Sequence record: NC_048002.1
Reading direction: 5' to 3' (one strand)
Length of the DNA: 39,883 bases
From: Escherichia phage SRT7
Below, one piece after another: positions 5,424 to 39,708 of the stretch. The notes under the pieces were generated by a model. The model was not told the origin of the DNA, did no database searches, and saw only the letters and a list, made by a program, of their open reading frames with translations. Numbering within the stretch: the stretch's first letter is position 1; each line of letters begins with the position of its first letter. Both the position numbers and the translations under genes were made by a program.

Positions 5424-8400
5424 TTACCAGCGCTCTGAACGCTTAGGTCGCTCGGTTGTGTAGATGTGCTCTTCGAAAGCACCCAGAAGTAGTCTCTGAG
5501 TAATCGGGTCGTTCGGGAGAACTTCCTTCATATTCTGATAGACACCTGTAGTGAACTCCGTGGAGTCGCGAGGGCCATTGGCACCTCCGAGGTTCCAGAG
5601 GTTCTGACCGAGAGACACCGTAGAGCCAACGTAGTTAGCCACAGGGAACTGTTGACCAATAGCACCCATCAGCTCAGCCGTACCGGAACGACCAGAGGAA
5701 GCCTTGTTAGGGTCTCGCTGTGGTGCATCCTTAGGACTGATAGTGGTACGCATGTACTGACTAGGGGTTAGACCTAATGGGCCAAGTAGCATATCGGCTA
5801 CACCTAATGGCGCACCAGTGATAGAGCTTCGGGAGGCCGCAGCGTAGGTAACCATCTCAGGCGATAAAGCCTTGAAGAGATAGGCCTCACGTTGGTTCTC
5901 AGGAAGACCAGCAGCTTTCATGTGTGACTGCATCACATAGAACGAACCAGCCAACATTCCAGAGATACCAGTAGACAACGCAGCATCCATAGCTCGACCA
6001 TCTCGAGTCGCCTGATAGTAAGTACGTAGGGTCTTACCATTGAGGGACTTAATGACGAACGTCTTAAACTGGAGAGCAGCACCCACAATCGGGCCCAACT
6101 GTTTCACGTTCTGAGCGTTCAGCTTGGAAGGACGAAGCATGGTCTCATCGGCTACCTTGTCAGCCATACGCCACAAGTCCATAGCCCGAGGGTCAAGGCT
6201 CATTGCGTGTTGGTCTGGGAAGCTCCACTTACCGTTAGCGTCCACCTTGGCGTGGTCTTTGAGGAACTGAATGATACCCTTGGACTGCTCAGGCGTGATG
6301 CTGGCAGACTTCAGGAAGTTCTCATTGAGCCACTTGGATGACTTACCAGTCGCAGCGTGTTCAATCAGGTTCCCAATGAGACCCTGACGTGCAGCGCTAA
6401 GCAGGTAGTTCGTGGTGCCTTGTAGCAGCTTACTCATAGGCCACGCAGCGGCAATCTCCTGAGTCCCGAACTTAAGGGAACCCAGAGCGTTTGCACCGAA
6501 TGAACCCATACCAGAGTTGTCACGAAGAGACTGAATGAGGTCTGCCCGTTGAGGGCGAATCATATTGTCCACTTCACGACCCATCAAGCCATACTCCAGC
6601 TTCTGAAGGTCAGTCCCGGAGACAGCCTTAGTGGAACGCATCATGTCACGAACCACAGGGATACCGTGGAACAGAGCACGAACGTTACCCTTGGCAATCA
6701 TACCACCAATCTCCGTCAGGTTCAGAAGACCCATGTAGGCGTTCTTAGCGACAAAGCTCAGGTCTTTAAGAACACCCATAGCCATGTCCACAGCGCCGTT
6801 AGGGTCACGACGAGCACGACCAGTGAGTAACTTCACGGTATCTTCGAGGGCGTTAGCGTCCTGCTTCAGCTTACCGGAAGGGTCACTCTTGGCTCGCTCA
6901 CGGATAGCGGTAATCTTATCCAGCAAGTCCTGAGTAGTCTGACCCGTAGAGTGAATCGCAATGTCACCATTGGTTCGACGGGCATAATTACGCAGCAGCT
7001 TGTTAGCGTCAAAGCTACGAAGGTCATTCAGGGAGAACATCGTACCATCTGGCAGTTGAGACTTGAAGCCCATGCTAAACCCATGACGGCTCTCAAGGAA
7101 GTTGTTCTTCCCGAGGTTCATAGAGTTCGACGCAGAGGCGATATCGTCCAGTGCAAGGTTGGTAGTAAACTCACCATTTACAATACCGAATGCCTTATCA
7201 TTGGCCCACTTCTCAACCATCTCAGGTGTAACTGCGGCTGGGCTATCCAGACCGTTCTTAGCGGCTACCATCTCGTCTACCACAGACTTCGTGTTAGGGT
7301 TGGACGCATAGTCAGCCAAGAAGTGGCGCTGCATGGCACCTTGAGCATCCTCAATGGAGTTCCCAAAGACATTACGGAATGCAGCCACCTTCTCAGGTAC
7401 ATAAGCCACCGGGAAGTATTTGCCGCTAAGTTTCGTCTTGTTCATCACAGGGATTGCTTTAGGGTTACCGAACATCGCAGGGTTAGACATAGCGTCTTCC
7501 TTGCTGGTGGTGAACCGGAAGATTTCATCACGCAGCTTGGATTCACCCTTGGTCAACTTAGAGACGCCAATACCATCTTCCTGTGCTTCCACTGCACGAC
7601 GCACCACGGTCTCACGTGCCAGAGCATCCCCACGGTTAGCGCCCATAGTCCACTCAGGGTCTTTGATTGCATCACGTGTGAACTGCTCAATAGCCGTTAG
7701 GTCGGACGTATCGGTGTAGTGCAGACGCTCAGCCACGTCAGAGGCAACCGTACCGGACTTACCGGAGCCGCCTTTAACGTAACCTGTAGTGGAACGCAGG
7801 AGGTCATAGGCAACACCACGGACTTCATCGTCGGCAGAGCGAGACAGGTGCAGGGAGATATCGGTCATGGAACCCATACGTACACCCATAGAGCCCTTAG
7901 TCACCTCAGGGTCTACCGAAGCAAACTGAGAGGCACTATTAGGGTTCAGAGGGTTACTGGTTGACAGCACTTGACCATCCGGCAGGACTACTTCGCCACT
8001 GTCGAGGGTTGCATATTGAGAGCCATTCGGAGAGGTCTTAAAGTCCAGACCCTCGGTACTCACAGCAGAGTTATCCGGTAGGCCACGCATGGCTGCATCA
8101 CGAGACTCAGCGCGAGCTGTTGCCGCAAGGACGCTCTCAGCTTCACGAGGGTTGGCACGATGTAACACACCAGTCAGGCCAGCACCGAACAGTAAGCCAC
8201 CACCAGCCGCCATCATGTAGTCTGCATGTCCACCACCAACACCCACACGTAAACCTTCAGAGGCTACGTTCAGAGCACCAGCTTGAGTACCTACAGTCAC
8301 CATACGACGACCTAGGGAGATACCCTTGGAAGCCGCACCAGCAATCGGGATGTAGCTCACAGGGTCTACAGCAGCACCAGCGAGAGCACCCACGAGGTGG

Positions 8401-12373: not shown

Positions 12374-12781
12374 CTACCTCCTTATGGTGAACAGTTGGAA
12401 TTGACCATCGGCTGTAAATGTGTCTTCGAATACAGCGCCGATAGCCTTAAGGAACCGGATGTGAGACTTGTTTCCTATCCAAACGTAGTTCCAGAGAACT
12501 GGATAGCTGGCAAGCATCTTATCACGGTATTCGACGATACACTTAAAGAACTCTACCTTATGTTGTCTGTTAAGTCTCCACACTTGGTCTGACGTAACGA
12601 ACCACACTTGGTCTCCACAGTTTCCACCGATAGCAAGCGGGAACCCGGAGAGGTCTAAGGTCACACATTCGGAAGCATCCGGGAAAGCGGGTTCATGTCC
12701 AGCAGCCTTAGCTTCCATAGTATCATGGTGTGACGGGGTGAATAACTCAAAGTCATTACTTACAGTATTCCTAATGAACAT
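12374..12781 (-). CDS. gp13: Internal virion protein A (T7 gp13-like)
   Basis: 135 aa; FTPSHHD..EAKAAG..PDASECVTL..GFPLAIGGNCGDQ motif as in T7 gp13. Confidence 0.85.
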   Translation of the reverse strand: MFIRNTVSNDFELFTPSHHDTMEAKAAGHEPAFPDASECVTLDLSGFPLAIGGNCGDQVWFVTSDQVWRLNRQHKVEFFKCIVEYRDKMLASYPVLWNYVWIGNKSHIRFLKAIGAVFEDTFTADGQFQLFTIRR

Positions 12782-12807
12782 AATGTAATCCTCTTATGAA
12801 TTAGGTC

Positions 12808-12829
12808 TCTCCCTATAGTGTGGGTTAAT
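12808..12829 (-). promoter_or_regulatory. Phage RNAP promoter (phi13-like)
   Basis: Consensus 22-mer on minus strand. Confidence 0.88.
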
Positions 12830-20716: not shown

Positions 20717-20803
20717 AAAGTCCTCCTTAAGTTATTGGTAATACATAATCATAAACTCTTAAATAGAACTTTAAGTAGCTTACAATAGGGTCTTTAAGTG
20801 TAC

Positions 20804-20825
20804 TCTCCCTATAGTGTGGGTTAAT
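20804..20825 (-). promoter_or_regulatory. Phage RNAP promoter (phi6.5-like)
   Basis: Consensus 22-mer on minus strand. Confidence 0.88.
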
Positions 20826-20846
20826 ACACAAAGACCCTATAATCAG

Positions 20847-25120: not shown

Positions 25121-25498
25121 TTACAGTGAGGACGATGGGATTGAGCGATAGTTATCCGCACTGACCCACGTCATTGCTTTGTGAGTTAACAGGCGAGCGC
25201 CTACGCGCATGGCAAACTGTTGAACCAGAATGCGACCATCCTTAACGTCGGATACACGATAGGCAACCTTAGACGTGCGACCCTCTACCCAATCACCCGG
25301 ACGGAACGGGTTGTGTACCTTAGCGTCAAACGCTTCTGCGATGAACTTAGGTTTCACCCAAGACTTACCATCCCAAGACCACCCAAGGTTGTGCAGAACG
25401 GCAACCGCACCATTCTTACGTGACTCCACGGCCTCAGCCGATTTCAGTTCGGATTGCAGCTTAACGATTTCTTCACGGATAGTATGAATGTTACGCAT
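25121..25498 (-). CDS. Hypothetical protein at gene 4.7 position
   Basis: 125 aa; AAAGGAG RBS; preceded by RNase III-type hairpin as T7 gene 4.7 is by R4.7. Confidence 0.7.
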   Translation of the reverse strand: MRNIHTIREEIVKLQSELKSAEAVESRKNGAVAVLHNLGWSWDGKSWVKPKFIAEAFDAKVHNPFRPGDWVEGRTSKVAYRVSDVKDGRILVQQFAMRVGARLLTHKAMTWVSADNYRSIPSSSL

Positions 25499-25526
25499 AA
25501 TTTGTACTCCTTTGTAATTAATAGAT

Positions 25527-25570
25527 AATCATAAAGGCCACCTTTCGATGACCTTGAGTTTACCTATCAG
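25527..25570 (-). promoter_or_regulatory. RNase III-type processing hairpin (R4.7-like)
   Basis: Minus RNA CTGATAGG...AAGGTCATC-GAAA-GGTGGCCTT, 9-bp stem with GNRA-like loop; overlaps stop of upstream ORF. Confidence 0.5.
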
Positions 25571-25845
25571 CTACTCAGCTCATCCAGATACGCCTTAGCG
25601 AACGCTTTGGTACGCGCTTCATCACGTTCTGGGATTGCTTTCTGTACTTGCTTGGTCAGGAGACCTAACAGGCGAGCTGCCTGAGTGTCATCTAACGTGG
25701 TACGTTGAGTGTGCATTTTCGGTGACGTACGGTCCTTCCAGCGGTAGACCATAGTGACCTTACCATTACGGACGTTAACGTGGATGCGACGATTGAAGTG
25801 GTCAACCGTATCGGACAGGTGCAGGGTCTGGGATGATTTAGACAT
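25567..25845 (-). CDS. Hypothetical protein (92 aa) at gene 4.5 position
   Basis: ATG with TAAGGAGA RBS; stop embedded in conserved CTGATAGG motif. Confidence 0.65.
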   Translation of the reverse strand: MSKSSQTLHLSDTVDHFNRRIHVNVRNGKVTMVYRWKDRTSPKMHTQRTTLDDTQAARLLGLLTKQVQKAIPERDEARTKAFAKAYLDELSS

Positions 25846-30018: not shown

Positions 30019-30040
30019 TGTCCCTATAGTGTGGGTTATT
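30019..30040 (-). promoter_or_regulatory. Phage RNAP promoter (phi2.5-like; variant -17..-13 and GGGACA)
   Basis: Minus TAATAACCCACACTATAGGGACA; overlaps 3' end of gene 2. Confidence 0.75.
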
Positions 30041-31360: not shown

Positions 31361-32422
31361 TTACATCTTCACCGTTGGGTCACTTTCAGTCCCTCGCCAG
31401 CAATCCCAGCTAGGGTGACGGAGCGAGCCATCTTCGGTGTATTCCATGAACTTTACTTGGCATTGCCAGCCCTCGTAGGGGTTCATGTACCAGCATCCAG
31501 CTTCGTTAGCGTTACACTCAGTGGTGTACTCCTTAACGCGCTTCGTGAACTCGTCCATCAAATCCTGAGAGATGTTATTAGCGTCAACCGTGACACCGTT
31601 CTCAAGTTGTACTTGGAAGCCGATAACCTTACCTTCGTTAGCGAGACCCGGAGTGCCCCAATTGAGACCAACAACTACGCCATCGGCTTCGTCTTCTGGC
31701 TTCATCTTCCACCAGCCAGTTTTCTTACCGCGACGATAAGTCCCTGTTGGGTCCTTAATGATGAGACCCTCATGGCCCTCTGCACGTTTCTCTGCGTAGA
31801 GTTCGTTCAGGGACTGCATGTCATACACATCGTAGGTCTCAGCGAGTTCCCAAGAGACTTCAGGGAAGTGGTCACGCAGCACCATAATCATCTGCTGACA
31901 GTGGACCTGCATTAAGCAGTTCATCACGTCGATATCTTCACCAGACTCAACTTTGTCGAGCGGCAGGATAGCATAGAGGCGAACGCACAGGTGCTCAACG
32001 GAGAGGTTGAATGGTTGCTTGTTCTTAGACTTCCACACATCGTGGAACACACGGTGCTCGGTGAACTCAAAGTTGTTCAGCTTGAGCCACTTGGTACGCA
32101 GCAATCCAGAGCCCTTCTGGAACGACACACCTTTGACCATCAGTTCACCATCAAGCATGAACCCTTCCGGGTAAATCCAGCGGTCATCCTTCAGGAGCTT
32201 CTCCCAGCGACGGTCGTAACCGTTCAGGTGCTCCAGTGCAGGGATGGTCTTCGCTACACGGGACAGCCACAGGCCACGAGCGTCATCGGCTACCACAATG
32301 TTACCACGAACGCCATCATACTTAACGTCAGCAATAAGTGAACCGTTCTTCTCAAGAGCTTTCTCTACGGCAGACTGGACGAAACTTACAGCTTTATATG
32401 GGTTGGTTTTAATAGATGTCAT
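31361..32422 (-). CDS. gp1.3: ATP-dependent DNA ligase (T7 gp1.3-like)
   Basis: Start at ATG 32422 (MTSIKTNPYKAVSF..., 353 aa) overlapping gp1.2 stop; KYDGVRG adenylation motif; matches T7 ligase. Confidence 0.93.
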   Translation of the reverse strand: MTSIKTNPYKAVSFVQSAVEKALEKNGSLIADVKYDGVRGNIVVADDARGLWLSRVAKTIPALEHLNGYDRRWEKLLKDDRWIYPEGFMLDGELMVKGVSFQKGSGLLRTKWLKLNNFEFTEHRVFHDVWKSKNKQPFNLSVEHLCVRLYAILPLDKVESGEDIDVMNCLMQVHCQQMIMVLRDHFPEVSWELAETYDVYDMQSLNELYAEKRAEGHEGLIIKDPTGTYRRGKKTGWWKMKPEDEADGVVVGLNWGTPGLANEGKVIGFQVQLENGVTVDANNISQDLMDEFTKRVKEYTTECNANEAGCWYMNPYEGWQCQVKFMEYTEDGSLRHPSWDCWRGTESDPTVKM

Positions 32423-32643
32423 TGTTTGATTTCCTTCATGAATTGTGGGTTGTATTGCTCGATGATTTTCCATGCGTATAACTTAGCGGTAGTCTCGCCA
32501 TCTTTCGCATAAGGTTGTTCGAGACGTCCAAGCTCAAGGCCGAACGCATCACAAATAACTGTAACGTGCAACATCCGGCAATCGTCATAGTACATGATCA
32601 TTTCCAGACCAGTGAACCAGAGTGCATCTTTCAGGCTAACCAT
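32419..32643 (-). CDS. gp1.2: gp1.2-like protein (dGTPase inhibitor family)
   Basis: 74 aa; position and YYDDC motif resemble T7 gp1.2 (IYDDW). Confidence 0.6.
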   Translation of the reverse strand: MVSLKDALWFTGLEMIMYYDDCRMLHVTVICDAFGLELGRLEQPYAKDGETTAKLYAWKIIEQYNPQFMKEIKQ

Positions 32644-32653
32644 AAGTCACCTC

Positions 32654-32842
32654 TCAGTAGTCGCGGTATTGTTTACCACAGGAAGTGTACTTGCGTTCCA
32701 TCTTATCGGCAATGTGGTCGAAGACTTCACGCTTCTCAGAGCGGTCAGCTTTACGGTCACGCTTGTTTAACTTAGCGCCTTTACGACCAGTGAAACCTTC
32801 AGTTGGAGCCTTGCGAGTGATGCGCTCGAAATTGGTATTCAT
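32654..32842 (-). CDS. gp1.1: gp1.1-like basic protein
   Basis: 62 aa, lysine/arginine rich; NFE...GRKGAKLNKRDRK resembles T7 gp1.1. Confidence 0.7.
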   Translation of the reverse strand: MNTNFERITRKAPTEGFTGRKGAKLNKRDRKADRSEKREVFDHIADKMERKYTSCGKQYRDY

Positions 32843-32882: not shown

Positions 32883-32904
32883 TCTCCCTATAGTGTGGGT
32901 TAAT
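32883..32904 (-). promoter_or_regulatory. Phage RNAP promoter (phi1.1B-like)
   Basis: Consensus 22-mer; transcript 5' end can form GGGAGA-loop-UCUCCC hairpin. Confidence 0.88.
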
Positions 32905-32908
32905 ATAC

Positions 32909-33187
32909 TTAGCGGGTGGTCTCAATAACTATGCGACCGAGTACATCATGCTTCTTAAAGATGAACTCTTTACGAGACCCATCGGTGTGCGTCTGTGTCA
33001 GTACATACAGCAGAGGACCTCGTGGGGACCACTTCAGTTTACTGACTGTCTTGCCGCAAGGCCCAAGTCCCAACACAAAGTCTGTCTTGTGGAGGCGACC
33101 ATCAGGCTTCACAGCATAGAACAGCACGCGGGTAACTTTAGGTATCTTAAAGAGTTTCTTTAGGTATGAAAAGATTGAAGTAATCAT
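32909..33187 (-). CDS. Hypothetical protein (92 aa) between the two phi1.1-type promoters
   Basis: ATG at 33187 with GAGG RBS; no counterpart in recalled T7 map. Confidence 0.55.
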   Translation of the reverse strand: MITSIFSYLKKLFKIPKVTRVLFYAVKPDGRLHKTDFVLGLGPCGKTVSKLKWSPRGPLLYVLTQTHTDGSRKEFIFKKHDVLGRIVIETTR

Positions 33188-33203
33188 GTTTGTAAACCTC
33201 GTT

Positions 33204-33242
33204 GGTTAACTTTAAGTATCTTTATGTTTAACTTTAAGTATT
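33204..33242. repeat. AT-rich segment with two copies of TTAACTTTAAGTAT downstream of phi1.1A (candidate primary origin region)
   Basis: Direct repeats at 33205-33218 and 33228-33241; position mirrors the T7 primary origin. Confidence 0.4.
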
Positions 33243-33281
33243 GGGACCATCCGGCATCGCATCTAGGCGATAGGCCATCTG

Positions 33282-33303
33282 GTTCCCTATAGTGTGGGTT
33301 AAT
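33282..33303 (-). promoter_or_regulatory. Phage RNAP promoter (phi1.1A-like; GGGAAC variant)
   Basis: Minus ATTAACCCACACTATAGGGAAC. Confidence 0.8.
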
Positions 33304-33348
33304 GATAAGACCCTGAAGATTCAAGGCCTTAGGTATTAACCGACGCTG

Positions 33349-35997
33349 TTAGGCGAACGCAAAGTCAGACTTTAAGATTTCCTGAAGATTCAGAGACCCT
33401 TTAGCTGGAATCGCTGGCATCTTCTCAAGCTGACTTTCGTGAAGCTGGTCGTAGAACTGGTCGTAGAACTCTTGGATTACGTCATGCTCCTCATAGGTCT
33501 CCACAAGGGTCTCACGTACTGCGTTAAACAGGTTGCGAGCGTCTGCGGCTACCGTACCGAAGCTATCGTGAATCAGAGCGAACGACTTAATGCCATACTT
33601 ATTGTGACCGTGCACTACCGTCTGACGCAGGTGGCTACCATCCATGCTGTGCACGAAGTTAGGCGCAATCCCGGACTCCTGTTTGTGTGCGTCAATCCCG
33701 CTATCCTTTGTTGTGTTGATGGTCAGAGCCATGCGAATCTTACCAAGGAAAATCAGGTCGAGACGCTTCTGGACTGGCTTCTTGTACTCCTGCCACACAG
33801 GGAACCCATCAGGAGTAACCCAATGTACAGCACAGCGGTTGCGCAGGATTGTCCCGTCCTTATCCTTCACCTCAGCGGCTAACAGCTTAGCAGCACTCTG
33901 GAGCCACTTCATGGCATCAACCGCAGCCACCACAGTGACACTTACAGCTTCCCAGATGAGCTTCGCCATGTAACCTGCGGCTTGGTTCGGCTGGGTAAAC
34001 ATGAGGCCCTTCCCGTTGTCAATAGCTGGACGGATGGTGTCCTCCAGTACTTGGTCACGGAAGCCATACTCTTTGGAACCATACGCCAGCGTCATGACAG
34101 AACGTTTAGTGACCCCACGGTTGACCCCAAAGGCCAGCCACTGACCAGCCAGCTCGCGAGTACCCAGCTTAGGCTTCTCGGTAATCTCACCAGTGGTCTT
34201 ATTGGTAATCACTTCGATTTCGTTGTCGGTCCCGCCGATAGCATCAGCCTGAAGACGGATGTTAACCTTGTCGGAGACGATACGATAGATATCCTGCACG
34301 GTCTCGCTCGGTAGCAGGTTAACTGCACGACCACCAACCTCATCACGCAGCATAGCAGAGAAGTGCTGAATCCCTGAGCATGAGCCATCGAAGGCCAGCG
34401 GCAGAGAGGACACGTAGGACTTACCGTGACGGAACGCTCCAGCGTACTCAAAGCAGAACGCGAGGAAACAGAACGGTGAATCTTGCTCGGCCCACCAAAG
34501 GTTCTCTAAAGGAGCCTCAGCGCAAGCCATAATATCTGCGTGGTGACTCTCAATGAAGTCGATGCGCTCCGGGAATGGGACCTTATCAACACCTGCGGTA
34601 TTCGCACCGTGAATCTTCAGCCAGTACATTCCGTCCTCACCGATAGGCTTGCCAGTGGCGAACGTCAGGAGGCCCTTTGTCATATCGTTGCCCTGTGGGT
34701 TAAACATCGGGCAAGCATACACGCGACCGCGCCAGTCTAGGTTGTACGGGAACCAGATTGCCTTAAACTGTGCAAACTTATTGGCCTGACCGAGAGCGAA
34801 CTCGAGGGACAGGCGCTTAGACACGCGAGCCTTATCCTGACGATACACGGCTGCGGCTGCTTTCTTCCACGACTTGAGAGACGCTTCATTCGTGTCGATG
34901 TCCTCAGGTTTCTCCGGGAGTTCTTTACGCTCCAGCGCTGGGATATCCTCCACCGGACAGTTCTTCCAGTTGACCACCTGATTGACGACCGCCAGAACCT
35001 TCGTGTTAATCTTCCACGCTGTATTCTGAGCGATGTTTACCGCTTCATATACCTCAGGCATAGACACATCGTTGTAGCGCATGAGAGCCTTACGAGAGCC
35101 TACACGAATCAACTGAATCGGCTTACGACCAGCCGCCCAATAGCCGCCACCTTCGATGGACGTCCAAGGTTTCGGAGGGACTACACAAGGTTGATACATT
35201 GGTGCGATTGCAGCCAGTGCCCCAGCGCGTTTACTGATAGCTTCTACCCATTCGTCAGCCAGAAAGACAAACTGACCGTCTGACTTAACGTTCCCGGCGT
35301 TCATACGCTCGACCTCAACGAGACCTGTAGACTCAATAAGCAATTCAAGCATCTTGATACCTGTGTGCTCCAGCTCCTCGGTGGTCCAGTGCTCCCACGT
35401 GGATTTAAGCTCTTTGCGCTCAATCATCTGTTTCTCTACGACCTGCATGTAAGCCTTTTTGTAGAGCAAGCCGTTGCGCTTGTTGAGCCCGTCCTCTACG
35501 TACTTCTTAAAGAACTTGGCTTCCTCATCACGGATACGACCGAAGCGTAACTCATCTTCGATTGCACGACCTATGGCGAACGCTACGTTCTGCATTGATG
35601 CCAGTTCCTGCTTGGCTACCTGTGCCAGTGTCTGCTTGACCACGATTGCCGCACAGTTGTCGGCTTTGATTGCCGCTGTGGTCTTTGTAGCTACGTGCTT
35701 ACGTCCTTTCTTCACGCGCATCTCTTCGTGCCACTCAGTGAAACGAGCAGACAACCGAGGGATTAACGTCTGGACTACACCTTTAGCCGCTGCGTTATCT
35801 GCAAACTCGCCAGCCTCAATCTGACGCTGTAACTGCTTATGGAAACGCTTCTCACCTTCCGTGTATGCCTCGTGCTCTAACTCAAGTTGAACAGCCGCCA
35901 GATGTTCGCCGTAATGGTCTGCCAATACGTTGAACGGTTCGATATCGTGTTTGATATCAGAAAAGTCATTCACTGCCGGATTAATTACGTTGCTCAT
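33349..35997 (-). CDS. gp1: Single-subunit DNA-dependent RNA polymerase (T7 gp1-like)
   Basis: 882 aa; extensive identity to T7 RNAP including catalytic HDSFGT and C-terminal FAFA. Confidence 0.97.
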   Translation of the reverse strand: MSNVINPAVNDFSDIKHDIEPFNVLADHYGEHLAAVQLELEHEAYTEGEKRFHKQLQRQIEAGEFADNAAAKGVVQTLIPRLSARFTEWHEEMRVKKGRKHVATKTTAAIKADNCAAIVVKQTLAQVAKQELASMQNVAFAIGRAIEDELRFGRIRDEEAKFFKKYVEDGLNKRNGLLYKKAYMQVVEKQMIERKELKSTWEHWTTEELEHTGIKMLELLIESTGLVEVERMNAGNVKSDGQFVFLADEWVEAISKRAGALAAIAPMYQPCVVPPKPWTSIEGGGYWAAGRKPIQLIRVGSRKALMRYNDVSMPEVYEAVNIAQNTAWKINTKVLAVVNQVVNWKNCPVEDIPALERKELPEKPEDIDTNEASLKSWKKAAAAVYRQDKARVSKRLSLEFALGQANKFAQFKAIWFPYNLDWRGRVYACPMFNPQGNDMTKGLLTFATGKPIGEDGMYWLKIHGANTAGVDKVPFPERIDFIESHHADIMACAEAPLENLWWAEQDSPFCFLAFCFEYAGAFRHGKSYVSSLPLAFDGSCSGIQHFSAMLRDEVGGRAVNLLPSETVQDIYRIVSDKVNIRLQADAIGGTDNEIEVITNKTTGEITEKPKLGTRELAGQWLAFGVNRGVTKRSVMTLAYGSKEYGFRDQVLEDTIRPAIDNGKGLMFTQPNQAAGYMAKLIWEAVSVTVVAAVDAMKWLQSAAKLLAAEVKDKDGTILRNRCAVHWVTPDGFPVWQEYKKPVQKRLDLIFLGKIRMALTINTTKDSGIDAHKQESGIAPNFVHSMDGSHLRQTVVHGHNKYGIKSFALIHDSFGTVAADARNLFNAVRETLVETYEEHDVIQEFYDQFYDQLHESQLEKMPAIPAKGSLNLQEILKSDFAFA

Positions 35998-39305: not shown

Positions 39306-39334
39306 ATTAAGCCATAGACCGATGAGGATGTCAA
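39306..39334 (-). promoter_or_regulatory. Candidate host sigma70 early promoter (A1-like)
   Basis: Minus TTGACA-17nt-CTTAAT; spacing to A2/A3 candidates (~150 bp) mirrors T7 A1-A3. Confidence 0.4.
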
Positions 39335-39384
39335 CACTTAATGATAAACTTTATGAAATACTTTAAGTATGGGCTTATAGGTTA

Positions 39385-39406
39385 GCTCCTTATAGTGTGG
39401 GTTAAT
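39385..39406 (-). promoter_or_regulatory. Phage RNAP promoter (phiOL-like; AAGGAGC initiating variant)
   Basis: Minus ATTAACCCACACTATAAGGAGC, ~300 bp inside the left terminal repeat. Confidence 0.7.
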
Positions 39407-39708
39407 AGGCCGTGATAATAGCTATTGACTCTTTGGTCTCTTTAAGTTACCTTATAAGCGTACCACAGATAGACCGCTCTTTAACAATCTGACCAGTAGC
39501 ACCAGCATCACAGCAAAGATGCGACCAATAAGCCCTGAGAGCCTAGCTAATCACCTCTCTGATAAACTGATAGCAAACCATAAGCCATGAGACTGACGGT
39601 CTCTGATAAGCGTCACAGCGCTACTGAGAGTAAACCAAAGGATGGGCACCGACCAAAGGTGATGACCTGAGGTGACATTGAGTGATGACCTTATGATGTC
39701 CAACAGAT

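Follow-up and report, generated by a model that had tools for sequence, protein, structure and literature searches.

A phage promoter and the AT-rich tract that follows it (33133-33242) would form, with a probability that we put at about 60%, a primary origin of replication of the T7/T3 type in Escherichia phage SRT7, primed by transcription and doubling as the leader of gene 1.05. This reading draws on the low stability of the tract, which contains the least stable 100-bp duplex of the genome, on the clustering of one motif at origin promoters, and on the initiation of T7 replication at phage promoters. SRT7 is a T7-like phage, and its genome (NC_048002.1, 39,883 nt, with genes on the minus strand) was analysed over its full length, hereafter called the window. 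In the order of transcription, the module comprises the phi1.05 promoter, a stable 5' hairpin, an AT-rich tract of about 110 bp, gene 1.05, the phi1.1 promoter and gene 1.1. Judged from its sequence, this is the arrangement found downstream of gene 1 in phages of the T3 and K11 types, within the T7 group (subfamily Studiervirinae). The layout is a known one, and the findings leave the understanding of T7-like phages unchanged. The features of the region are listed below.

33349..35997, minus strand: gene 1, phage RNA polymerase, 882 aa; upstream neighbour of gene 1.05 (ORF list)
33327..33336, minus strand: additional decamer copy ATACCTAAGG, between the gene 1 stop codon and the promoter (ATACYTAARG search)
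33284-33302, minus strand: promoter of the phi1.05 type, exact match to the 12-member consensus TTAACCCACACTATAGGGA
33243..33287, minus strand: GC-rich hairpin at the 5' end of the transcript, GGGAACC...GGTCCC (RNA fold)
33133..33242, no strand assigned: AT-rich origin-like tract (duplex stability, GC content, position of the T3 rep_origin)
33209..33239, minus strand: repeat triplet 1, made of ACTTAAAGT (33239-33231), ACATAAAGA (33227-33219) and ACTTAAAGT (33217-33209)
33197..33200, minus strand: Shine-Dalgarno sequence GAGG of gene 1.05, 9 nt 5' of the ATG (read from the sequence)
33135..33165, minus strand: repeat triplet 2, in codons 8-18, made of ACCTAAAGA (33165-33157), CTTTAAG (33152-33146) and ACCTAAAGT (33143-33135)
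32909..33187, minus strand: gene 1.05, 92 aa, ATG start (PF25755, PHROGs, tblastn, dN/dS, AlphaFold2)
32885-32903, minus strand: promoter of the phi1.1 type, exact match to the same consensus
32654..32842, minus strand: gene 1.1, 62 aa, PF08200 Phage_1_1 (E 1.5e-9); downstream neighbour

Gene order and promoters

The minus-strand promoter TTAACCCACACTATAGGGA was found in 12 copies in the window, against 0 expected by chance, and two of these, identical to each other, enclose gene 1.05. The first (33284-33302) lies 47 nt past the stop codon of gene 1, at a position equal to that of the annotated phi1.05 of T3, K11 and Kvp1; transcription would start at G 33287. The second (32885-32903) leads into a short leader without an AT-rich tract. 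The first-pass annotation had assigned both to the phi1.1 type. They are indeed phage promoters, but K11 and Kvp1, like T3, are annotated with phi1.05, gene 1.05, phi1.1 and gene 1.1 in that order. Therefore the two promoters of SRT7 are better called phi1.05 and phi1.1.

The only close DNA relative of the window in the phage collection was P1723, an Escherichia phage of the genus Foetvirus (species Foetvirus SRT7), which is 97.6-98.3% identical over the gene 1.05 region and whose gene 1 orthologue is annotated as DNA-directed RNA polymerase. No other DNA-level match was obtained in this collection, even at the "distant" sensitivity setting. Between 32300 and 33700, an Rfam scan with E values up to 1 gave no match. 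No intrinsic terminator was detected between 32600 and 33450, and a sigma-70 promoter scan of the same interval returned one promoter-like match on the plus strand, at chance level.

Downstream of gene 1.1, the 74-aa ORF at the gene 1.2 position (32419-32643, minus strand) had no Pfam or PHROG family match. In P1723 (L001 4058-4481), the equivalents of genes 1.1 and 1.2 bear the names "FAD-dependent oxidoreductase" and "alpha-mannosidase", names that we rejected, as the proteins have only 62 and 74 aa. The ligase ORF in its longest form (370 aa, 31361-32473, minus strand) overlaps the preceding 74-aa ORF by 55 nt, and the P1723 ligase is shorter (1035 nt); the true start of the ligase therefore probably lies further downstream.

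Gene 1.05 and its product

The first-pass annotation had described a 92-aa ORF with a ribosome-binding site between two promoters, and both the reading frame and its signals were recovered as described. It had also proposed a comparison with T3 gene 1.05-type ORFs, and the ORF is of this type: the product matched PF25755 Phage_T3_1_05 ("Enterobacteria phage T3 gene 1.05 protein") with 93 bits for a cut-off of 27 (E 1.1e-26), residues 17-89 aligning to positions 1-72 of the 73 in the profile. As expected of a member of this family, the gene lies between gene 1 (RNA polymerase) and gp1.1, and its product contains FVLGLGPCGK. In a 69-sequence alignment, L39, G40, G42, C44, G45 and Q65 were invariant, the GLGPCGK loop forming part of the conserved core. 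PHROGs 8103, 6440 and 6379, all of unknown function, also matched.

Relatives of gene 1.05 were detected by tblastn in 636 phage records, mostly of Klebsiella, Salmonella, Escherichia and Yersinia phages. Several of these records carry a 1.05 annotation, and the P1723 copy is already labelled "putative 1.05 protein". A protein search with the single sequence gave one match; it was repeated with the alignment as query and then returned 146 homologous proteins, all of which (146/146) carry PF25755 and many of which are 170-190 aa long. The dN/dS ratio of 0.15-0.16, calculated against P1723 and the ENA metagenome contig L074, indicates that gene 1.05 is a real protein-coding gene under purifying selection. 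The first-pass annotation had regarded it as an extra, inserted gene. It is absent from T7, where comparison confirmed that no gene stands between phi1.1A/B and gene 1.1, but its presence in 636 phage records and the same gene order in T3, K11 and Kvp1 point to an ordinary gene of the T3/K11 type rather than a local insertion.

The AlphaFold2 model of gp1.05, built from the 69-sequence alignment, had a mean pLDDT of 89.7 and shows a small beta-barrel of six strands, preceded by an N-terminal helix (residues 2-12) that is weakly predicted. It had no informative structural match: a search of BFVD returned uncharacterised members of the same family only, and a PDB profile search with gp1.05 gave nothing. 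PADLOC likewise gave nothing for this protein, NCBIfam gave a sub-threshold chance match only, and literature searches for gp1.05 yielded annotation tables only.

Most family members are "fusion" forms of 170-190 aa, such as those of Kvp1 (L004 186-743), K11 (L072 5869-6429) and proteins P0003-P0066. In long members, the 1.05 domain comes after an N-terminal hydrophobic segment and a long, charged stretch of helix-like character. The short forms, found here and in T3, have an amphipathic N-terminal helix only. Because the long forms carry a transmembrane-like segment and the short forms an amphipathic, Lys/Phe-rich N-terminus, gp1.05 is probably held at the membrane, by the short amphipathic helix in SRT7 and T3 and by a transmembrane helix and coiled coil in Kvp1 and K11.

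The leader, the AT-rich tract and the repeats

The transcript from phi1.05 would begin with the GC-rich hairpin. Folding of 33170-33288 gave -28.9 kcal/mol (z = -3.1), and a hairpin is present at the same place in K11-like and Kvp1-like leaders. The AT-rich tract then takes in the ribosome-binding site of gene 1.05 and its codons 1-18. The AT-rich character of the DNA downstream of the first promoter, already pointed out in the first-pass annotation, was confirmed: GC content falls to 0.27-0.28 across about 33140-33240, compared with 0.505 for the whole window. Nearest-neighbour free energies rank 33143-33242 as the least stable of all 100-bp duplexes in the window (z = 4.7). The four segments that come next in this ranking each lie just after a phage promoter, at positions corresponding to phiOR, phi6.5, phiOL and phi13 of T7.

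The plus-strand 14-mer TTAACTTTAAGTAT, which reads ATACTTAAAGTTAA on the minus strand, is present in exact copies at 33206-33219 and 33228-33241. The two copies start 22 bp apart, separated by a gap of 8 bp, and not 23 bp apart as first stated. An exact 14-nt direct repeat arose in 0/1000 dinucleotide-preserving shuffles of the 131-nt region, which supports the first description of the repeats; their number, however, had been underestimated. Both 14-mers form part of triplet 1, whose units are spaced by 12 and 10 bp, and the sense strand reads ATACTTAAAGT-TAAACATAAAG-ATACTTAAAGT. Triplet 2, 74 bp away and inside gene 1.05, is a degenerate copy of triplet 1, with its middle CTTTAAG unit (33152-33146) in the opposite polarity. 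Indeed, the 38-nt block 33130-33167 is identical to 33204-33241 at 29/38 positions, whereas the best of 1000 shuffles reached 25. The common unit is a 9-bp near-palindrome, ACTTWAAGT, of 4+1+4 structure (ACTT-W-AAGT) and a spacing of about 11 bp.

The decamer ATACYTAARG was found 9 times in the window for 0.23 expected (about 40-fold). Five copies lie on the same strand within 33136-33336, and another is found just after the phiOL-like promoter. Within the ORF, the two copies of ATACCTAAAG are 22 nt apart and are thus read in different frames, an arrangement that argues for a constraint acting at the level of DNA and not of protein. The idea that the in-ORF repeats simply follow from encoding a Lys/Phe-rich helix was rejected on account of the two reading frames and of the 38-nt match, which exceeded all shuffles.

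Among three close relatives, the leader and codons 1-18 differed by 3 changes/171 nt versus 20/222 nt in the rest of the gene. The low divergence runs on into gene 1, and it was therefore not retained as proof of selection on the repeats; it may instead reflect a recombination boundary.

Other features of the window were noted, all on the minus strand. At the phi6.5 position, the leader 20727-20826, which follows the promoter at 20806-20824, gave the lowest duplex stability in the window at lengths of 40 bp and 60 bp and displays the same strong-weak-strong pattern as the phi1.05 leader (CACTTAAAG, ATTGTAAG, CTACTTAAAGT) followed by ATTTAAG. In 39335-39434, a phiOL-like promoter (39387-39405, one mismatch to the consensus) is followed by ATACTTAAAGTATTTCATAAAGTT, much like the phi1.05 repeats; this tract ends at a TTGACA near 39330 that resembles the -35 element of a host early promoter, and it may double as an UP element. 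The tracts 442-547 and 12718-12817, also among the least stable, lie just downstream of the promoters at the phiOR position (568-586) and the phi13 position (12810-12828). The low-stability spot at 25479-25578 is not preceded by a promoter; it contains aaactcaaggtcatcgaaaggtggcctttatgatta, with a ribosome-binding site after it, and this sequence resembles the RNase III site motif of T7 and T3 (see T3 R1.1 and, in T7, the interval from phi1.1A to phi1.1B). At the left end of the genome (39640-39883), short direct repeats (ACCTTTGGT, ACATTTGGT, CCTTTGGTT) form an array that resembles those found beside the terminal repeat in T7-like phages.

A candidate origin and alternative roles of the repeats

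The T7 primary origin is the experimentally studied model of transcription-primed initiation. Replication of T7 starts at phi1.1A/B, phiOR and phi6.5 are usable as secondary origins, and each origin requires a phage promoter (PMC8373140). The transcript primes the DNA polymerase, after which the helicase-primase assembles (bioRxiv 10.1101/2024.07.25.605042). By analogy, transcription by the SRT7 RNA polymerase would proceed from the phi1.05-type promoter into the AT-rich tract and yield the RNA primer for the phage DNA polymerase, and the displaced strand would take up the helicase-primase. This tract also forms the leader of the gene 1.05 mRNA.

In its relation to both phi1.05 and gene 1.05, 33133-33242 is the positional equivalent of the rep_origin annotated in the T3 RefSeq record. 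When the window, T7, K11 and T3 were searched for CTT[AT]?AAG, clusters of at least two motifs within 30 nt were found only after phiOL, phi1.05/1.1B, phi6.5 and phiOR, with the sole exception of one cluster just upstream of T3 phiOR. The suggestion of the first-pass annotation that the repeats may mark the origin thus fits both the T3 rep_origin (5682-5758) and the location of the least stable duplex, although origin use in SRT7 is itself inferred. The recognition site of the T7 helicase-primase is a 5'-GTC-containing pentamer. When the T7 definition of this site (PMC12839067) was applied, no such pentamer was found inside the tract; a single sense-strand TGGTC (33249-33245) precedes it closely.

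Some observations count against an origin. The AT-rich tract after phiOL lies just upstream of the TTGACA near 39330, at the position of an UP element of a host promoter, and phages of the JA10 and Sibilus types carry gene 1.05 with no repeats in front of it. Moreover, the same heptamer stands directly 5' of GGAG at two other, ordinary ribosome-binding sites of the window, as in AACTTAAAGGAG (after promoters at 30039 and 18292), and it does so in T7 too; the motif may for this reason matter mainly in mRNA. It is indeed possible, if distinctly less probable than an origin, that the repeats act mainly as A/U-rich leader elements (translation enhancers or ribosome standby sites) for gene 1.05 and play no special part in replication. 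Kvp1- and K11-type leaders are in line with this, the last unit being fused with the Shine-Dalgarno sequence as CTTTAAGAGG and CTTAAAGAGG. So is the T7 gene 10 leader, which has a 9-nt A/U-rich enhancer 5' of its Shine-Dalgarno sequence (PMC8748333). This enhancer, TTAACTTTA ("epsilon" or Enh), is the same 9-mer as that contained in the plus-strand repeat TTAACTTTAAGTAT. However, the T7 element acts in mRNA, whereas in SRT7 the 9-mer is on the non-coding strand: the enhancer UUAACUUUA is absent from the mRNA just upstream of the gene 1.05 Shine-Dalgarno sequence, where the mRNA reads ACUUAAAGUUAA. Orientation need not matter, since the gene 10 enhancer may act via ribosomal protein S1 and not by base pairing (PMC8748333). 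The repeats may have a generic A/U-rich enhancer effect. Nevertheless, they lie 9 nt from GAGG without overlapping it, the second triplet is inside the coding region with two units in different frames, and the module occurs in either orientation in different lineages. Multi-copy clusters are also confined to the promoters with origin function in T7; late genes of high expression have a single copy only. A role in translation and a role as origin are compatible and do not exclude each other.

The two orientations, the palindromic 4+1+4 unit and the invariance of the cores in K11-like leaders, where the spacers vary, would suit iteron-like sites to which gp1.05 or a host factor, probably as a dimer, binds sequence-specifically and so organises initiation. 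With units every 10-12 bp and triplets 74 bp apart, such sites would share one helix face. We consider this unlikely. T7 has the repeats without gene 1.05, JA10 and Sibilus have the gene without repeats in front, and in its long forms gp1.05 has a transmembrane segment at the N-terminus. No initiator protein figures in published accounts of T7 initiation (PMC8373140; bioRxiv 10.1101/2024.07.25.605042). No cognate initiator with a recognisable DNA-binding domain was found encoded nearby, and gp1.05 has no such domain. Together with the presence of the repeats in T7 without the gene, this makes a reading as iterons with an initiator weak. Classical iterons measure 17-22 bp; the six 9-bp units in two triplets and the one decamer upstream are far shorter. 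It is similarly doubtful that ACTTWAAGT is a double-stranded DNA recognition element common to the replication promoters of Studiervirinae, where a bound dimeric protein (gp1.05 or a host factor) would place the switch from RNA to DNA. If true, this would add a site-specific component to T7-type initiation, usually described in terms of a promoter and AT-rich DNA only. Finally, the repeats might be a neutral local duplication in AT-rich DNA with no function of their own; exact copies number only two, and the three closest genomes are too alike here to reveal selection. This seems very improbable, given that neither the 14-mer repeat nor the 38-nt block match was reached by any shuffle, that the decamer is about 40 times commoner than expected, and that a homologous three-unit module exists in K11-like and Kvp1-like phages, which otherwise have no detectable DNA similarity to the region.

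Altogether, a transcription-primed origin remains our preferred reading, and it gives SRT7 a likely primary origin at about 33133-33242, of use for annotation and phage engineering. To delete gene 1.05 cleanly, one should spare its ribosome-binding site and first 18 codons, since the origin-like tract extends over both. ACTTWAAGT clusters appear to mark the promoters used as origins in T7, T3, K11 and SRT7, and could provide a cheap sequence cue for other T7-like genomes.

Comparison with related phages

T3 (NC_003298) resembles SRT7 in the order of parts, in the protein family and in an AT-rich, heptamer-repeat tract that overlaps the start of gene 1.05. Its RefSeq record places phi1.05 at 5642-5664, gene 1.05 at 5717-5989, phi1.1 at 5984-6006 and a rep_origin, "primary origin of DNA replication", at 5682-5758. 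This annotated origin starts at the first CTTTAAG unit, ends shortly beyond the last one and covers the first 42 nt of gene 1.05. The T3 protein has 90 aa against 92 in SRT7, has a similar Lys/Phe-rich N-terminus and is about 40% identical. On the sense strand, the heptamer is CTTTAAG in T3 and CTTAAAG in SRT7; the promoter sequences also differ, and the 5' hairpin is longer in SRT7 (45 nt).

The phi1.05 leader of the Klebsiella phage K11 (Przondovirus) is collinear with that of SRT7, from the hairpin arm through three sense-strand ACTTAAAG units, and its promoter core, CACACTATAGGGA, is like that of SRT7. K11 differs in that its last repeat merges with the Shine-Dalgarno sequence, that no second triplet is found inside the gene, and that its gp1.05, a 186-aa "fusion", carries a transmembrane helix and a coiled coil ahead of the 1.05 domain. 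Leaders were compared in a set of 56 distinct sequences from 65 loci (64 IMG/VR loci and this window). In K11-like leaders, the promoter and hairpin are accompanied by three sense-strand CTTAAAG units at intervals of about 11 bp; Kvp1-like leaders contain three CTTTAAG units instead. Among some 45 distinct K11-like leaders, the CTTAAAG cores were invariant and the spacers varied. In the same orientation, triplet 1 could be aligned to the K11 leader and its three CTTAAAG units (34/40 identical, score 46, 0/300 shuffles). With the three CTTTAAG units of Kvp1, it aligned only as the reverse complement (score 45, 0/300 shuffles). These alignments indicate that the same repeat module exists in both orientations across lineages, as expected from a palindromic unit.

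In T7, as in SRT7, gene 1 is directly followed by phage promoter(s) and then by an AT-rich tract. CTTAAG, CTTTAAG and CTTAAG come right after phi1.1B in the primary origin, spaced by 12 and 10 bp. T7 differs in having two tandem promoters, phi1.1A and phi1.1B, with no gene between them; gene 1.05 is missing and the tract precedes gene 1.1. Phages of the JA10 and Sibilus types show another arrangement, in which the repeats are absent in front of gene 1.05 and such units stand after the next promoter. CTTAAG and ACTTTAAG units were seen after the promoter downstream of gene 1.05 in Sibilus (L005 760-860) and JA10 (L009). Since the units of these phages stand after the next promoter and not before the gene, the repeat module is not tied to gene 1.05 and has moved relative to it between lineages.
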